From contig PKZK01000037.1 in the NCBI GenBank assembly GCA_003133025.1, positions 1 through 6,140 on the forward strand: a stretch of DNA of 6,140 nt, read 5' to 3'. A model generated the notes under the pieces. The model saw nothing but the letters and a program-made list of their open reading frames with translations, did no database searches and had not been told where the DNA came from. Both the position numbers and the translations under genes were made by a program. The DNA is from Vulcanimicrobiota bacterium. GTDB lineage: Bacteria > Vulcanimicrobiota > Vulcanimicrobiia > Vulcanimicrobiales > Vulcanimicrobiaceae. Shown piece after piece: positions 2 to 6,140 of the stretch. How positions within the stretch are numbered: position 1 is the first letter of the stretch; each line of letters opens with the position of its first letter.

Positions 2-1141
2 GTCGAGGATACGCTCGCGGCCTACCTCGCGCTCGCGCGGCTCGCGCGCGCCCGGGTGCGCGGTCCGGTCGTGGCCATCAGCGGTTCGACCGGCAAGACG
101 ACGACGAAGCAGTTTCTCGTGCGCGCGCTCGAAGCGGCCGGCATCCCCGCGATCGCGACGCCGGAGAACGAGAACAACGAGATCGGCGTCGCGAAACTGC
201 TGCTCGGGGTCCCGGGCGACGCGCGCTTCGTCGTCGTCGAACTCGGCGCGCGGCACGCGGGCGAGATCGCGCCGCTCGCGCTCGCCGCGCGTCCCGAAAC
301 CGCACCGCTCACGAACGTCGGCGAAGCGCACCTCGAAGTGTTCGGCTCGCGCGCGCAGCTCGCGGCGACGAAGTGGGGCATCTTCGCCTCGGGCGCGCGC
401 CGCGTCCTCAACGTTGCGGACGAAACCTCGCGTGCGTTCGCGGAGCGCGACGGCCTGCCCGCGACGTGGTTCGGCGTGTCGGCCGACGCCGAAGCGCCGC
501 GCGGCGAAACCGCGCTCGTGCTCGACGGTCGCGACGAACTGCGCCTCCGCGTTCCGGGTCATCCGGAACGCACGTTCCGTACCGGCACCGGCATCCGGTT
601 CGGCGGCGACCACAACCTCGCGAACGCGGCGGCCGCGGCCGCCGCCGCATTCGATCTCGGACTCGAACCGGCCACGATCGCCGCGGCCCTCGGAACGCTC
701 GCGCTGCCCGCGGGTCGCTACGAACGTTCGAGCGTGGCCGGCTTCGACGTGATCTACGATGCGTACAACGCGTCGATGTCGGGCGCGCTCGCCACGCTCG
801 CCACGTTCGCGCGCGAGCGGGCCGAGCGGCGAATCGTCGTGCTCGGCAGCATGGCCGAGCTCGGTCCCGAGGCGCCCCAGATGCACCGCCGCGTGGGCGC
901 GGCGGTGGCTGCGCTCGACGTGGGCGCGCTGCTGGTCGGCGGCGATTTCGCCGAGGATTTGGCCGCCGGCGCGCGCGCCGCGGGCGTGCCGCCCGAGCGC
1001 ATCACCGAATTCGCCGACAACGCCGCCGCGCTCGAGTGGCTGCGCGCCAACGTGCGCGCCGGCGATCTGCTCTTGCTCAAAGCCTCGCGGCGCTATCGGC
1101 TCGAAGAGATCCTCAGCGGTCTCGAGGCGGCGCATGTCTGA
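2..1141 (+). CDS. murF: UDP-N-acetylmuramoyl-tripeptide--D-alanyl-D-alanine ligase MurF (5'-partial; the frame is open from the window edge, so the track start at 56 is an internal GTG)
   Basis: The frame from nt 2 reads VEDTLAAYLALARLARARVRGPVVAISGSTGKTTTK (Mur-ligase P-loop). It continues with the MurF-type motifs NNEIG, ELGARHAGEI, TNVGEAHLEVFGS, HNLANA, GR..., DAYNA, VLGSMAELG...MH and GDLLLLKASR. Stop is TGA 1139-1141. Its position upstream of mraY-murD-ftsW-murG is the canonical dcw order. Confidence 0.95.
   Translation, partial: VEDTLAAYLALARLARARVRGPVVAISGSTGKTTTKQFLVRALEAAGIPAIATPENENNEIGVAKLLLGVPGDARFVVVELGARHAGEIAPLALAARPETAPLTNVGEAHLEVFGSRAQLAATKWGIFASGARRVLNVADETSRAFAERDGLPATWFGVSADAEAPRGETALVLDGRDELRLRVPGHPERTFRTGTGIRFGGDHNLANAAAAAAAAFDLGLEPATIAAALGTLALPAGRYERSSVAGFDVIYDAYNASMSGALATLATFARERAERRIVVLGSMAELGPEAPQMHRRVGAAVAALDVGALLVGGDFAEDLAAGARAAGVPPERITEFADNAAALEWLRANVRAGDLLLLKASRRYRLEEILSGLEAAHV
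1124..1130 (+). promoter_or_regulatory. Probable ribosome-binding site for the CofE-like gene, embedded in the 3' end of murF
   Basis: GAGGCGG lies at 1124-1130, with its GAGG core ending 6 nt before ATG 1134. Confidence 0.5.
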
Positions 1142-1859
1142 GGCGGTGCTGGTCGTCGGCCGTCCCGCGCTCGCGTCGCGCGCGCCCTTCGCGGGCGAAG
1201 CGCGCGCGATCCCGGTGCGCACGCGCTTGATCGATCGCGGCGACGACGTCGCTGCGCTGGTCGCCGCCGCCGTCGCGGGCATCGCGAGCGGCGACGACGT
1301 GGTCTGCGTCTCCGAAACCGCAGTCGCGATCGCGCAGGGCCGCGCGATCGCCGCCGAAACGATCCGGCCGAGCCGGCTGGCCTACGTGCTCTCGCGGCGC
1401 GCGGGCGCCTTGGCCACGATCAATCAACCCGAATCGTTGCAACTGGTGATCGATCAAGTCGGTGCGTGGAAAGTGATCGTGGCCGCGGCCGCGCACGTCG
1501 CCGGCCGCTTGGCCGGGCGCCGCGGCGTCTTCTATTCGATGCTGGGCGAGGCGATCGCGACCATCGACGGTTACACCGGCACGTTGCCGCCGTTCGAACG
1601 CACGATCGTGCTCGGTCCGGCCGATCCCGACGGCGTCGCGCGCGACATCGCGGCGCGCTGCGGCGCGCAAGCGACGATCGTCGACGCCAACGATCTGGGC
1701 ATCGCCAAGGTGCTCGGAGCGTCGGCGCGCGTCGAGCGCGACGCGGTCGCGCGCGCGTTGCGCAGCAACCCGCACGGCAACGGCGACGAGCAGACGCCGA
1801 TCGTCGTGCTCAAGTGGCGCGGCGCCGCGCCCAGCCCGTTTGCGGCGGTGGCCGCATGA
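1134..1859 (+). CDS. CofE-like (coenzyme F420-0:L-glutamate ligase family, F420_ligase fold) putative GTP-dependent amide ligase, 241 aa; substrate unknown
   Basis: ATG 1134 overlaps the murF stop, and TGA 1857-1859 overlaps the mraY ATG. The protein begins MSEAVLVVGRP and shows the CofE motif series in the expected order: IPVRTRLIDRGDDVAALV, DDVVCVSETAVAIAQGR (SET at 1311), IATIDG (ID at 1563), IVLGPADPDGVARDI, IVDANDLG (VD at 1680) and NPHGNGDEQTPIVVLK (1767-). Codon usage is GC3-rich like the neighbouring genes. The track's 759 start is an extension overlapping murF. Confidence 0.85.
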   Translation: MSEAVLVVGRPALASRAPFAGEARAIPVRTRLIDRGDDVAALVAAAVAGIASGDDVVCVSETAVAIAQGRAIAAETIRPSRLAYVLSRRAGALATINQPESLQLVIDQVGAWKVIVAAAAHVAGRLAGRRGVFYSMLGEAIATIDGYTGTLPPFERTIVLGPADPDGVARDIAARCGAQATIVDANDLGIAKVLGASARVERDAVARALRSNPHGNGDEQTPIVVLKWRGAAPSPFAAVAA

Positions 1860-2818
1860 ACGCGCTCGTGCAATTGGCCTTACTGTTCATCGCAACGTTC
1901 GCGCTGACGCTGCTCGCCGGCGGTCCGCTGATCGCCTTGCTCAAACGTGCCTCGCTGCGGCAGCACGCCTACGAAGACGCGCCCAAGACGCACGCCAAGA
2001 AGACCGGCACGCCGACGATGGGCGGCCTGCTCTTTCTGCTGGGCCTCGTGCTCGCGGTGCTTTGGCATCCCGACGCGCAGACTGCGGGGTTGGTGTTGCT
2101 CGGCGTGCTCTGCGGCGCCATCGGTTTCGTCGACGATCTGCGTTCGATCCGGCAAGGGCGCAATCGCGGCTTGGGCGCGCGCGACAAGTTTGCGCTGACC
2201 GCCGTCGCGGGCGCGATCTATCTGGCGCTGGCTACGTGGGCCGTGCCCGACGAAGCGCGGGGTGCGCTGCTCTCGTTCGGCGCATCGCACTGGTACGTGC
2301 CGATGTGGGCATGGGACGGCTTGGGTCTGGCCGCCATCGTGGCCACCACGCATGCGGTCAATCTCACCGACGGTCTCGACGGACTCGCGGCCGGCACGAT
2401 CCTCTCACCGCTGGCGGTCTTCGCCTGGCTCGGCTGGCGTGCGGGCACCACCGGCGTCACCTCCGTCGACGTCGCGCTCGGCGCGGCGACCCTCGGCTTT
2501 CTCGTCTTCAACCGTCACCCGGCCCGTGTGTTCATGGGCGATACGGGCGCGCTCGCGCTCGGCGGCATCCTCGCGGGCAGCGCGCTCGCAACCGGTAATG
2601 TCCTCTTACTCCCTCTCGTCGGCGGCGTTTTCGCTGCCGAGACCATCTCGGTGATCTTGCAAGTGGCCTCCTACAAGACGATTCACAGACGCATCTTCCG
2701 CATGAGCCCGCTGCACCATCATTTCGAATTAGGCGGCTGGCCCGAAACCAAAGTCACTCGTCGCTTCTGGACCGCGTCGGCGTTGCTCTCGCTCGCCGGC
2801 GCGGCGCTCGCGCGATGA
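1856..2818 (+). CDS. mraY: Phospho-N-acetylmuramoyl-pentapeptide transferase MraY, 320 aa
   Basis: ATG 1856 is in an ATGA overlap and is preceded by GGCGGTGG at 1844-1851. The product is a polytopic membrane protein with KKTGTPTMGG, IGFVDD, AVNLTDGLDGLA, FNRHPARVFMGDTG, SVILQV and RIFRMSPLHHHFELGGWPETKV. The track's 1466 start is spurious. Confidence 0.97.
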   Translation: MNALVQLALLFIATFALTLLAGGPLIALLKRASLRQHAYEDAPKTHAKKTGTPTMGGLLFLLGLVLAVLWHPDAQTAGLVLLGVLCGAIGFVDDLRSIRQGRNRGLGARDKFALTAVAGAIYLALATWAVPDEARGALLSFGASHWYVPMWAWDGLGLAAIVATTHAVNLTDGLDGLAAGTILSPLAVFAWLGWRAGTTGVTSVDVALGAATLGFLVFNRHPARVFMGDTGALALGGILAGSALATGNVLLLPLVGGVFAAETISVILQVASYKTIHRRIFRMSPLHHHFELGGWPETKVTRRFWTASALLSLAGAALAR

Positions 2819-4215
2819 ACGGCAACATCGGCGGCTTCGACGCGCGCGAGCGGGTGCTCGTCATCGGCCTCGGCCGCAGCGGCTTGGCCAGTTGCGCGGT
2901 TTTGCGCGCGCGCGGCGCGAGCGTCTATGCGACCGACGAAAAGGATCCGGCGGCGCTGGCCGACGCGCGGGCCGCAATCGAACGCGCCGGCGTGCGCTTC
3001 GTGCCGCCGGGCGATCTCGAAAAGGTCGCGGGCGAACTGACCTCGGCCGTGCTTTCGCCGGGCATTCCGCTCAACGGGTCGCTCGTGCGCCGCGTGCAGG
3101 CCGCGCGCATTCCGGTCTTCAGCGAGATCGAGGTCGCGTACCGCATCTGCAAGGCGCCGATCGTGGCGCTCACCGGCACGAAGGGCAAGACGACCACGAC
3201 CGCGTTGATCGGCGAACTCTTCCGTCACGCCGGGTTCACCACGCACGTCGGCGGCAACATCGGCAACGCGCTGATCACGGAGACGGCCGTCGCCGAGCCC
3301 GAAGATTGGGTCGTGGCCGAGGTCTCGTCGTTCCAGCTCGAGTCGATCCGCTCGTTCAAGCCGCGCATCTCGACGATCCTCAACATCTCGCCCGATCATC
3401 TCGATCGCTACCATTCGATGGACGAGTACGCCGAAGCGAAGTTCCGCATCTTCGCCAACCAGAGTGCCGGCGACGCGTTCGTGGGCAACCTCGACGATCC
3501 GATCGTCGGCGCGCTGGCCGATCCCGAAGCCGGCAACCGCATTCCCTGTCGCGCGTATTGGTTCGGCCGCACGCCGCGGCGTCTCACGACGCTCTACGTG
3601 CGCAACGAACGGATCACGTACGCGCCGCCCAGCGGCGATCCGCGGCCGGTCGAAGTGATGCCGCTCGACGAGATCCCCTTGCTCGGCGCGCACAACGTGG
3701 CCAACGTGATGGCCGCGGTGCTCGTGGGCCTGACCGCGGGCATCGCGCCCGACGTGCTGCGAGCGGGCGTGCGCGCGTTCCGGCCTTTGCCGCACCGTCT
3801 GCAGACGGTGGCCGAGGTCGACGGAGTGATCTACGTCGACGATTCGAAATCGACCAATCCCGGCTCGGTGATCGCCGCGCTCGAGACGTTCGACGCGCCG
3901 ATCGTGCTCATCGCCGGCGGCCGCGCCAAAGGCACCGACTTCGCCGCGATGGGCGAGGTCGTGAAGAAGCGGGCCAAGGCCGTCGTGCTGATCGGCGAAG
4001 CGGCCGACGAGATCTCGAGCGTCGTCGATCCGGCACGCACCGCGCGGGCGGCTTCGATGGACGAGGCGGTCGCAATCGCGCGCGCGCTCGCGACGTCGGG
4101 CGACGTCGTGTTGCTCTCGCCGGGCTGCGCTTCGTTCGACATGTTCGGTTCGGCCGAAGCGCGCGGCGACGCGTTCGCGCGCGCCGCCTCGGCGCAAGCG
4201 GTGGCGCATGGTTAG
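2815..4215 (+). CDS. murD: UDP-N-acetylmuramoyl-L-alanine--D-glutamate ligase MurD, 466 aa
   Basis: Motifs are VLVIGLGRSG, LSPGIP, SEIE, P-loop TGTKGKTTTT, GGNIG, EVSSFQLE, LNISPDHLDRY, HNVAN, LPHRLQ, DDSKSTN, LIAGGRAKG and LLSPGCASFDMF. The start is in an ATGA overlap with mraY, and the stop is TAG 4213-4215. Confidence 0.97.
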   Translation: MNGNIGGFDARERVLVIGLGRSGLASCAVLRARGASVYATDEKDPAALADARAAIERAGVRFVPPGDLEKVAGELTSAVLSPGIPLNGSLVRRVQAARIPVFSEIEVAYRICKAPIVALTGTKGKTTTTALIGELFRHAGFTTHVGGNIGNALITETAVAEPEDWVVAEVSSFQLESIRSFKPRISTILNISPDHLDRYHSMDEYAEAKFRIFANQSAGDAFVGNLDDPIVGALADPEAGNRIPCRAYWFGRTPRRLTTLYVRNERITYAPPSGDPRPVEVMPLDEIPLLGAHNVANVMAAVLVGLTAGIAPDVLRAGVRAFRPLPHRLQTVAEVDGVIYVDDSKSTNPGSVIAALETFDAPIVLIAGGRAKGTDFAAMGEVVKKRAKAVVLIGEAADEISSVVDPARTARAASMDEAVAIARALATSGDVVLLSPGCASFDMFGSAEARGDAFARAASAQAVAHG

Positions 4216-5323
4216 GGAAGAGCAGATCGGCGTCCGGCCCGGGCCGGACGCGGTGCTCGTCGGTGCGGTCGCCACGCTCGTCGCGCTCGGCCTGGTCATG
4301 GTCTTCAGCGCATCGAGCACGCAGGCCGTGGCCGAACTCCACGACGGCGCGTATTATTTCAAGCGCCAACTGATCATGCTCGTGGTCGCGCTGACCGCGG
4401 GATACGTCGCCTATCGCATCGACTATCGCAAACTGCGGCCGCTCGCGCCGGTGGCGCTGGGCGTGAGTTTCCTGATGCTGGCCCTGGTGCTCGTGCCCCA
4501 CATCGGCGTGCAGATCGCGGGCGCGCGCCGCTGGATCGGCATCGGACCGTTCGGCTTTCAGCCGTCGGAGTTCGCCAAGCTCGGGCTGATCGTTTATTTA
4601 GCCGCGGCGCTGGCGAGCAAGGGCGATCAGATCCGCTCCTTGACGCGCGGCGTCGTGCCGATCACGATCGTCAGCGCGGGGCTCGCGGTGCTGGTGCTGC
4701 GCGAGCCCGACTTCGGCACGGCCAGCCTCTTCGCACTGACCGCCGCCGCGCTGATGTTTGCCGCAGGCGCGCGGATCGTGCACTTGATCATGGTCGGCGC
4801 GGTCACCGTTCCCTTCGCCGCCTTCGTGATCGCGCACGACGCGTACAAGCGCAACCGCATCCTGGCCTTCTTGAACCCGTGGCCGCACGCCAAGAACGAA
4901 GGCTTTCAGATCGTCCAGTCGCTGCTCGCGCTGGGCAGCGGCGGCCCGTTCGGGCGCGGCATCGGCTTCTCGCGTCAGAAATTCTTCTGGCTGCCCGAGG
5001 CACACACCGACTTCATCGGCGCGATCATCGGCGAGGAACTGGGCTTCGTGGGCATGCTCGCGATCGTCGTGCTGTTCGTCGCCTTCGCCTATCGCGCCGC
5101 GCGCATCGCGCTCGGCGCGTCCGACCGTTTCGGCTTCTTTCTGGCGCTGGGCTGCATGTCGATGATCTTGATCCAAGCCTTCATCAGCATCGGCGTGGTG
5201 ACCGCATCGTGGCCGGTGACGGGCGTGCCGTTGCCCTTCATCTCGTTCGGAGGTTCGTCGCTGATCGTTTCGGTCGTGGCGGTCGCGCTCGTCGCGAACG
5301 TGGGCCGCAGCCGGCGGCAATAG
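4208..5323 (+). CDS. ftsW: SEDS-family peptidoglycan glycosyltransferase FtsW, 371 aa
   Basis: A hydrophobic polytopic protein with GLVMVFSAS, GARRWI, FQPSEFAK, EPDFGT, QSLLALGSGG, QKFFWLPEAHTDFI (catalytic Asp retained), GEELGFVG and PVTGVPLPFISFGGSS. Its location between murD and murG favours ftsW over rodA. Confidence 0.95.
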   Translation: MVREEQIGVRPGPDAVLVGAVATLVALGLVMVFSASSTQAVAELHDGAYYFKRQLIMLVVALTAGYVAYRIDYRKLRPLAPVALGVSFLMLALVLVPHIGVQIAGARRWIGIGPFGFQPSEFAKLGLIVYLAAALASKGDQIRSLTRGVVPITIVSAGLAVLVLREPDFGTASLFALTAAALMFAAGARIVHLIMVGAVTVPFAAFVIAHDAYKRNRILAFLNPWPHAKNEGFQIVQSLLALGSGGPFGRGIGFSRQKFFWLPEAHTDFIGAIIGEELGFVGMLAIVVLFVAFAYRAARIALGASDRFGFFLALGCMSMILIQAFISIGVVTASWPVTGVPLPFISFGGSSLIVSVVAVALVANVGRSRRQ

Positions 5324-6140
5324 TGAGGTTGCTGCTGACGGGCGGCGGCACCGGCGGTCACGTATATCCGGCGCTTGCGATCGCCGAGGCGCTCGCGGGC
5401 GACCTCGCGCTGCAACCTCTCGACGTGCTCTTCGTGGGCACGCGCGGCGGCTTGGAGAGCGAGATCGTGCCCGCAGCCGGGGTGCGCGCGGAGTTCGTCA
5501 GCGCCGCGCCGCTGTTGCGCACGCTCTCGCCCGCGCTGCTGCGCACGTTCTTCGCCAACGCACGCGGTTTCGTGCAGTCGCTGGGTTTGCTGCACCGCTT
5601 CAAACCCGACCTCGCGATTGCGACCGGCGGCTACGTGACCTTTCCGGTGATCGCCGCCTTACGCGCGGTGCGCACGCTACGCCTCTCGCGCGCGAAGATC
5701 GCGCTGCTCGAACCCAACGCGGAGCCGGGCCTGACCAACCGGCTCTTGGGTCCGCTCGTCGACGAGATCTGGACGGCGCTGACGCCGGCGGGCGCGCCGA
5801 AGACGGTCGCAACCGGAACGCCGGTGCGCGCGTCGTTCGTGCAGCCGATCGAGCCTGCAGCCGCGCGCGTCGCGCTCGGCCTCGACCCGGGGTTGACCAC
5901 GGTCGTCGTCTTCGGCGGGAGTCAGGGCGCCCGCTCGCTCAACGACGCCTTCGTCGAGGTCGCGGCCACGTTAGCCCCGGAGCGCCAACTCTTGCTGGTC
6001 ACCGGCGCGCGCGATTACGAGGCCGTCGCGCAACGCGTGCGCGGCCTGCCCCGGGTGCTCGCCTTGCGCTACCTCGCGGATCCGCGCGCCGCCTATGCGG
6101 CCGCGGATCTGGTCGTCGCGCGGGCCGGCGCATCGACGCT
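5323..6140 (+). CDS. murG: Undecaprenyl-PP-MurNAc-pentapeptide GlcNAc transferase MurG (3'-partial; absent from the ORF track because it runs off the window)
   Basis: GTG 5323-5325 shares one base with the ftsW TAG. Manual translation gives MRLLLTGGGTGGHVYPALAIAEAL...LFVGTRGGLE...KPDLAIATGGYVTFP...LLEPNAEPGLTNR...TGTPVR...VVVFGGSQGARSLN...AYAAADLVVARAGAST, with no stop before the window end. Confidence 0.96.
   Translation, partial: MRLLLTGGGTGGHVYPALAIAEALAGDLALQPLDVLFVGTRGGLESEIVPAAGVRAEFVSAAPLLRTLSPALLRTFFANARGFVQSLGLLHRFKPDLAIATGGYVTFPVIAALRAVRTLRLSRAKIALLEPNAEPGLTNRLLGPLVDEIWTALTPAGAPKTVATGTPVRASFVQPIEPAAARVALGLDPGLTTVVVFGGSQGARSLNDAFVEVAATLAPERQLLLVTGARDYEAVAQRVRGLPRVLALRYLADPRAAYAAADLVVARAGAST

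Follow-up and report, generated by a model that had tools for sequence, protein, structure and literature searches.

A CofE-fold gene between murF and mraY in Vulcanimicrobiota, a candidate amide ligase for the peptidoglycan precursor

Kamio and co-workers are said to have described a membrane-bound, ATP-requiring "lipid intermediate:diamine transferase" activity in Selenomonas and Veillonella. In these bacteria, cadaverine or putrescine is carried on the α-carboxyl group of D-glutamate (D-Glu) in the peptidoglycan, and the S-layer homology (SLH) domain of the protein OmpM binds the polyaminated polymer, according to PMC10628300, PMC5020339, PMC12826042, and bioRxiv 10.1101/2021.05.31.446380. 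Through OmpM, diderm Firmicutes have their outer membrane fastened to the polyamine-modified peptidoglycan, and this tether has been argued to be ancestral for much of the bacterial tree. The searchable literature names no enzyme or gene for D-Glu polyamination. Here, we analyze a gene, called X below, that encodes a CofE-fold, ligase-like protein of 241 amino acids and lies between murF and mraY in the division and cell wall (dcw) cluster of a Vulcanimicrobiota bacterium (GenBank assembly GCA_003133025.1, contig PKZK01000037.1). The stretch of DNA analyzed, hereafter the window, is that whole contig of 6,140 bp (C212 in our numbering); the assembly comprises 3.35 Mb and is 80% complete. The searchable literature describes no link between the dcw cluster and a CofE-like gene. 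We tentatively propose that X is a ligase which, in a nucleotide-dependent reaction, forms an amide at a carboxylate of the precursor's stem peptide during peptidoglycan synthesis; a di- or polyamine is the most probable amine. We rate this proposal at slightly short of an even chance.

Fold, conservation, and synteny of gene X

The X protein matches the Pfam family PF01996 (F420_ligase) with an E value of 1.8e-13 and a score of 51 bits against a cut-off of 25, over profile positions 2-133 of 218 only. PF01996 is the sole Pfam domain in X at E ≤ 0.01. Domains of the Mur ligases, MurT, the ATP-grasp enzymes, and the Fem proteins are absent from it, so X is distinct from these families, as a first-pass annotation of this DNA had proposed. 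In a six-frame search of X's own genome, the profile reaches 47.3 bits, and it has no match in any of 10 bacterial control genomes. An AlphaFold model of X, built on 68 family members, has a predicted local distance difference test (pLDDT) score of 90.9. When the model is compared with the Protein Data Bank by Foldseek, the matches at E ≤ 0.001 are solely five chains of Archaeoglobus fulgidus CofE (E 1.4e-9 to 2.3e-8, template-modeling score 0.54-0.60, full length, ~21% identity), and the next match has an E value of 1.3. The CofE-like domain of a relative's longer form gives a VIA Z of 13.0, with a root-mean-square deviation of 3.0 Å over 181 residues. A lookup of X in the ESM Atlas returned the family label only. 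Pfam and Foldseek together thus bear out the CofE fold and CofE-family motifs that had been read in X at the outset.

The resemblance extends to individual residues. The N-terminal GDD and G-R motifs are common to X and CofE. In an alignment of eight X-family members with the CofEs of relatives (two complete, the third shortened), the acidic positions of CofE align with X-family D145, D184, and E219, and G69-R70 is retained; the core acidic and Gly/Arg positions of X are invariant or nearly so across the 68 or 18 family members compared. In the same alignment, the eight X-family sequences lack about 45 CofE residues of the C-terminal half. This segment is the hairpin region that covers F420, the residue roles being those given in the text of PMC10861534 rather than derived from a superposition. 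X is further set apart by an additional helical insertion around residues 99-130. Finally, where CofE has the motif D-S/T-x-G-R, X has D-A-N-D-L, with loss of the Arg and gain of an invariant Asp. Such an exchange would be better suited to a positively charged nucleophile than to a negatively charged one. The notion is that X may have kept the catalytic machinery of CofE and had both of its substrate sites rebuilt. Judged by its sequence, X is a member of a large, uncharacterized subfamily that is neither of the CofE/FbiB type nor of the chlamydial FolC2 type.

Homologues of X occur in 198 of the 201 genomes sampled from the phylum Eremiobacterota/Vulcanimicrobiota, and in 169 of the 170 with a completeness of 90% or more. 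These tallies, and those given below for FolC, FolP, and OKR_DC_1, include the unpublished genomes G128, G178, and G202; no claim depends on those alone. Within X's class, the order murF-X-mraY is present at 30 of 30 loci, X's own included, and at seven of seven further loci. Among class loci from a species collection, it is present in 77 of 80, and the other three end at a contig edge; the sets of 37 and 80 loci may have genomes in common. A scan of genome contigs with the family returned Eremiobacterota loci alone. Across the class loci, median identity to the window copy is 67% for X, 50% for MurF, 53.5% for MraY, 62% for MurD, 61% for FtsW, and 49% for MurG. No other protein of the cluster is as conserved as X, which exceeds both of its neighbors in 102 of 102 loci.

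Physical fusion accompanies this synteny. MurF and X are joined in frame in two of 116 loci, both from one genus, g43 (L051:3834-5717 and L052:5208-7088), and 26 of 33 longer homologues combine Mur-ligase domains with PF01996 (451-771 amino acids, mostly 700-771; P0271-P0295). Apparent X::MraY fusions (L082, P0273, P0296, P0184, and P0137) were not used as evidence: they are found in one of 116 loci, and the topology of MraY makes a cytoplasmic domain at its N-terminus doubtful. Open frames of 700-860 amino acids around X were likewise set aside as fusions, as they are mostly out-of-frame reading in G+C-rich DNA.

Neighborhoods of the family and of the window

A scan of metagenomes with non-Eremiobacterota members of the family yielded 80 loci with 36-49% identity to the query, falling into 12 clusters at 60% identity; seven of the 80 are dcw loci of the Eremiobacterota type. 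A basic-amino-acid decarboxylase (arginine or Orn/Lys/Arg) lies near X in 18 of the 80 loci and in three of the 12 X clusters. Specifically, in one cluster, OKR_DC_1 lies directly 3' of X at eight loci, overlapping it or at most 77 nt away, and is convergent with it at two more. In another, the operon runs OKR_DC-Amidase_3-X, with Amidase_3 (N-acetylmuramoyl-L-alanine amidase) and X fused in frame in L167 and L175 and separate in L170; the order in L166 is Amidase_3, X, pyruvoyl arginine decarboxylase. In the third cluster, a pyruvoyl arginine decarboxylase is divergently upstream of X at four of four loci. The pyruvoyl enzyme near X (PvlArgDC) exceeds the TIGR00286 cut-off. Because two unrelated decarboxylase families appear in differing arrangements, their product, an amine, would be the shared link to X. 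An X::OKR_DC fusion in L195 was considered and rejected: the reading frames differ, and the two genes are thus adjacent rather than fused. X's own genome encodes one OKR_DC_1 decarboxylase, 44% identical to an X-adjacent one, and the OKR_DC_1 family is present in 49 of 51 class genomes.

Enzymes that act on the wall itself are also found beside X in the metagenome loci. Amidase_3 and X are fused in frame in L199 too, and Amidase_3 adjoins X in L166, L168, L170, L171, and L194, in the last case as Amidase_3+glucosaminidase. Amidase_2 follows X directly in L200 and L208, PG_binding_1+3D is near X in L204 and L210, and a YkuD L,D-transpeptidase is encoded in L204. An exhaustive search for the family gave 690 representative clusters at E ≤ 0.001, and 40 family representatives were scanned for additional domains. 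Six of the 40 are Amidase_3::X fusions, and four carry an asparagine-synthase-type amidotransferase. Polysaccharide deacetylase, M20 peptidase, GNAT, PlsY, and CDP-alcohol transferase are each fused to X once among these representatives, the deacetylase case having the architecture TPR-X-polysaccharide-deacetylase (P0219). Representatives P0206, P0228, P0251, and P0262 (807-941 amino acids) consist of a complete asparagine-synthase-type glutamine amidotransferase and a C-terminal X domain.

Outside X's class, at 37 loci from 37 genomes of the same phylum, X is a protein of ~400-450 amino acids composed of a membrane helix, a β-sandwich, and the CofE-like domain. The membrane helix would fit a membrane-bound substrate. 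We assign no function to the N-terminal domain because it is a generic β-sandwich, with a best Z of 6.8 to the TMEM106B luminal domain. The gene ddl lies directly upstream of long X in L038, L039, and L048; genes for transporters of the energy-coupling factor (ECF) type are neighbors at three to five loci, and the remaining neighbors are unrelated genes. Long X also characterizes a cyanobacterial-type cluster of metagenome loci (L178, L186, L194, L213-L215, L219, L225, L227, L230, L236, L239, L243, and L245), with Crr6, CRR42-like, and DUF3685 genes as neighbors. The gene order of this type is long X, an open reading frame of ~345-445 amino acids (with a GNAT match in L197, L227, and L239), and ruvX.

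The features of the window are collected in Table 1.

Table 1. Gene X and surrounding features in the 6,140-bp window
Feature	Position	Strand	Basis or remark
Gene X, CofE-fold (PF01996) ligase-like, 241 amino acids	1134..1859	+	Open reading frame with TGA; Pfam; AlphaFold; Foldseek
GAGG, Shine-Dalgarno-like	1124..1127	+	Consensus match only; 6 nt before X ATG
Overlap of X start and murF stop, 8 nt	1134..1141	+	murF stop at 1139-1141
ATGA overlap of X stop and mraY start, 4 nt, translational-coupling type	1856..1859	+	mraY ATG at 1856-1858
murF, 3' part	2..1141	+	Contig begins inside gene; Mur_ligase_M 97 bits, Mur_ligase_C 64 bits
mraY	1856..2818	+	Glycos_transf_4 109 bits, MraY_sig1
murD (context)	2815..4215	+	MurD-like_N, Mur_ligase_M, Mur_ligase_C
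ftsW (context)	4208..5323	+	FTSW_RODA_SPOVE 350 bits
murG, 5' part (context)	5302..6138	+	Leaves contig; Glyco_transf_28, Glyco_tran_28_C

An intact gene with start-stop overlaps on both sides, a site resembling a ribosome-binding site, and host-like codon usage can all be read directly from the window, as the first-pass annotation had stated; G+C content at third codon positions is 0.89 for X and 0.83-0.90 for the five neighboring genes. The X frame is open from position 759. Residues 1-22 show low conservation and low model confidence, and the true start may therefore lie a few codons 3' of 1134. Elsewhere in the same genome, C171:15888-18124 holds murE and, at the contig end, the start of murF, probably the 5' part of the window's murF, and C204:9023-11752 holds ddl and a match to the Mur-ligase family that may be murC. 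C171 and C204 probably flank the window contig in a single dcw cluster.

Near-identical DNA is present in 18 metagenome runs from peat and permafrost. In two metatranscriptome runs with small shares of window sequence, the identical pieces are confined to murF (876-1015) and mraY (2269-2400); over X, the metatranscriptomes contain a single 71-nt piece with five differences, probably from a relative. In run X1, one DNA contig joins window position 1225 to 1766, skipping 540 nt (180 in-frame codons of X). On one side of the junction the match is just 21 nt long, and the piece has six differences; it probably represents another organism or a chance join.

Possible functions of X

From the fold, conservation, synteny, fusions, and neighborhoods described above, we infer how X might act, on what, and where. 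The hypothesis is that X would be made together with MurF and MraY and would work by the CofE mechanism: GTP or ATP and two metal ions would activate the substrate carboxylate as an acyl phosphate, and an amine would then attack the acyl phosphate to give an amide. The substrate would be UDP-N-acetylmuramic acid (UDP-MurNAc)-pentapeptide or lipid I/II, which would offer a free stem-peptide carboxylate. The amine would be cadaverine, putrescine, or agmatine, provided by a basic-amino-acid decarboxylase. By analogy with the Negativicutes, the likeliest site would be the α-carboxylate of D-Glu. A ligase of amines to the stem peptide is the simplest fit because it accommodates the CofE core, the coupling to MurF and MraY, the amidase fusions, the membrane anchor of the long forms, and the decarboxylase neighbors. 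The specific version, in which X joins a polyamine to D-Glu, is possible, but we are inclined to doubt it.

Several points weigh against an amine ligase of this kind. Conservation of the dcw linkage, on which the first-pass annotation had staked its proposal, holds throughout the class as murF-X-mraY and fails beyond it, with none of the 37 loci of the other phylum classes linked to dcw genes. The polyamine option put forward there is supported independently by three other lineages, in which decarboxylases and muramoyl-alanine amidases adjoin the family, but within the phylum no decarboxylase lies near X in any of the 37 long-form or 116 dcw loci (0/153). Moreover, polyamine decarboxylases serve general metabolism too. 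The focal X protein has no membrane anchor. Among the 120 matches listed for a Firmicutes member of the family, none is from the Negativicutes, the only bacteria in which polyaminated walls are proven; those that are named belong to monoderm Firmicutes (thermophiles) and sulfate reducers. The sole isolate paper for the phylum reports just "thin peptidoglycan". Finally, only 20 of the 31 class genomes searched yielded SLH/OmpM-type proteins, while X is near-universal. The need of an OmpM/SLH system for polyaminated peptidoglycan therefore cannot generally explain X, and we rejected it as a general rationale.

X's own genome does encode an OmpM-like protein (C205; L246:1-1818, minus strand), with a signal peptide, an SLH domain containing W-A-Y and TRYE, a coiled coil, and a long C-terminal region. 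The W-A-Y/TRYE signature is present in six of the eight SLH stretches caught by pattern in 24 class loci. Two SLH tyrosines, both present in this OmpM-like protein, have been linked to polyamine binding in PMC10628300.

Source names label homologues of X as CofE, and PF01996 does match, yet the idea that X is the organism's real F420-0:L-glutamate ligase has practically no chance of being right. X scores 33.7, 33.9, and 20.2 bits against the curated CofE models TIGR01916, NF009809, and NF009810, whose cut-offs are 180.65, 274, and 304. In its own, 80% complete genome, the best scores for CofD and CofC are 20.8 bits against a cut-off of 257 and 32.6 bits against a cut-off of 105, and CofD is found in none of 131 genomes of the class (0/113, 0/3, and 0/15 in its three families), results that agree with the initial view of X as untied to F420. 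CofD occurs in other classes of the phylum, and the F420-making relatives possess, in addition to X, a separate canonical cofE beside cofD that scores 248-270 bits. These cofE genes are L163:1786-2523 (minus strand), L164:3159-4409 (plus), and L165:2685-3434 (plus); the second lies inside an open reading frame of 417 amino acids with a long, low-complexity N-terminal extension. X's genome also contains two adjacent CofH-like radical S-adenosylmethionine genes (C86:8451-9314 and 10272-11291, minus strand; 275 and 267 bits against a cut-off of 374), possibly menaquinone (futalosine) paralogues. Nor is X a stand-in for an absent wall ligase, an option that the first-pass annotation had raised and that we drop, because MurE (510 bits), Ddl (273 bits), MurF, and MurD are present and the Mur-ligase-family match adjoining ddl on C204 is consistent with MurC; MurT_C was not found in this 80% complete genome. 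A further suggestion is that X is a γ-glutamyl ligase for folate or another pterin, a second, non-homologous folylpolyglutamate synthase (FPGS) like CT611/FolC2, whose place in the dcw cluster is incidental, and to this we give a small chance. Its precedent is that CT611, a CofE homologue, complements an Escherichia coli folC mutant, as reported in PMC1971073. At loci from other classes of the phylum, folD is a neighbor of X (L042, L046, L043, L045, and L152), a MetH/MTHFR fusion directly follows X (L044), and ECF-type CbiQ/ABC genes adjoin X (L140, L143, and L152). FPGS appears to be missing in families f6, f19, and f20, where FolC was found in 0 of 19, 0 of 5, and 0 of 16 genomes and FolP likewise was not found. 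Because FolC and FolP were not found there, a folate role stays a rival for the folD-linked lineages, and the folD/ECF and MetH/MTHFR neighborhoods count against a wall ligase, which leaves those in FolC-less relatives unexplained. In the class with the dcw-located X, however, every one of the 131 genomes encodes both FolC and FolP, and X's own genome has FolP and a FolC of 318 bits against a cut-off of 162.65, so X is not needed there as a FolC substitute, in line with the earlier annotation. X also occurs with or without FolC across the phylum. In addition, TIGR04132, the curated NCBIfam model of the FolC2/CT611 type (putative folate metabolism γ-glutamate ligase; cut-off 350), has no match to X (P0001) at E ≤ 1 in searches in which the HMMER filters discard most matches above E ~0.1, whereas genuine CofEs score 51-67 bits against this model. 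Nor would a folate enzyme be expected to have membrane anchors or to be fused to amidases or MurF.

X could also act on the wall precursor with other chemistry, adding an amino acid (Glu or Gly) or ammonia to the stem carboxylate or re-ligating a peptide or amine to the MurNAc lactyl group in the manner of Mpl; we see a low but appreciable chance of this. Such an enzyme would share every peptidoglycan context with a polyamine ligase. In addition, the fused or adjacent Amidase_3 and the unrelated Amidase_2 cut the bond between the MurNAc lactyl group and L-Ala, the natural first substrate of CofE is a lactyl carboxylate (PMC10861534), and the asparagine-synthase-type amidotransferases fused to four of the 40 representatives suit it as well. 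It would leave the decarboxylase neighbors in three lineages unexplained, and the D-A-N-D-L motif would favor a cationic over an anionic nucleophile. Those decarboxylases, together with the conservation of OKR_DC_1 through the class, are what would be expected if X were a ligase of polyamine metabolism that acts on a soluble small molecule, for example to make an acyl- or glutamyl-polyamine, and if its wall neighbors reflected co-regulation with growth. This is improbable in view of the in-frame fusions to MurF and Amidase_3, the operon OKR_DC-Amidase_3-X, the start-stop overlaps with murF and mraY retained across the whole class, and the membrane anchoring of the long forms. Finally, X might have no ligation activity and serve as a structural or regulatory partner of MurF and MraY, given that the Pfam match is limited to the N-terminal half and that ~45 CofE residues of the C-terminal half are missing. 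We regard this as very improbable, since the acidic and Gly/Arg core shared with CofE is invariant or nearly so and is kept across at least 690 representative clusters, and since the family recurs beside enzymes that supply or cut the putative substrates.

The families f6, f9, f13, f17, f19, and f20 show neither FolC nor FolP, yet they keep folD, which in these families often adjoins long X and ECF-type transporter genes (L042, L043, L045, L046, L152, L140, and L143). Such families may be folate salvagers without a known polyglutamylase. We also considered CT611 as a member of the X subfamily, from a published forward primer encoding MEITPIKT, similar to the family motif P-x-K/R-T, and dropped the idea given that TIGR04132 gives no match to X.

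Significance and comparison with known systems

If X is the precursor-amidating ligase proposed here, it would represent a fifth fold among enzymes for assembling or modifying the stem peptide and would reveal an unrecognized wall chemistry in the Eremiobacterota. X is a concrete and easily cloned candidate: it is near-universal in its phylum, which abounds in soil and peat, and its family is widespread in other lineages. The label "coenzyme F420-0:L-glutamate ligase" in organisms that lack F420 is a systematic database mislabel, which a function for X would correct. N-acetylputrescine occurs in cyanelle walls. We speculate, with more doubt than conviction, that the X family attaches di- or polyamines to D-Glu of the peptidoglycan precursor and that the occurrence of polyaminated walls extends well beyond the Negativicutes. 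If so, such walls would be present in all Eremiobacterota, many thermophilic monoderm Firmicutes, and cyanobacteria, and the GNAT-containing neighbor of cyanobacterial-type X would fit the acetylated putrescine of the cyanelle.

Among described enzymes, X is closest to A. fulgidus CofE, which it resembles in fold over its full length, in the GDD and G-R motifs, and in the aligned acidic positions; amide ligation through an acyl phosphate and two metals is likely common to both. X differs from CofE in being only ~21% identical and below every curated CofE cut-off, in having other neighbors and no F420 pathway around it, and in lacking ~45 residues of the C-terminal half and having a helical insert near residues 99-130. 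CT611/FolC2 of Chlamydia offers a precedent: in bacteria that lack F420, a member of the CofE family has taken on a substrate other than F420 (PMC1971073). X, however, has no TIGR04132 match, a comparison made via the model, and its host has both FolC and FolP.

On the wall side, MurT/GatD of Gram-positive bacteria amidates the D-Glu α-carboxylate of lipid II, on the finished precursor, the very site and stage proposed for X. MurT is homologous to the Mur ligases and is supplied with ammonia by GatD, whereas the fold of X is unrelated. For the diamine-attaching activity of Selenomonas and Veillonella, the searchable literature assigns no gene, and no X homologue from the Negativicutes is among the 120 matches listed for the Firmicutes member. 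It provides a functional parallel: the energy-dependent, membrane-associated formation of an amide between a diamine and D-Glu on the precursor is precisely the activity proposed for X.

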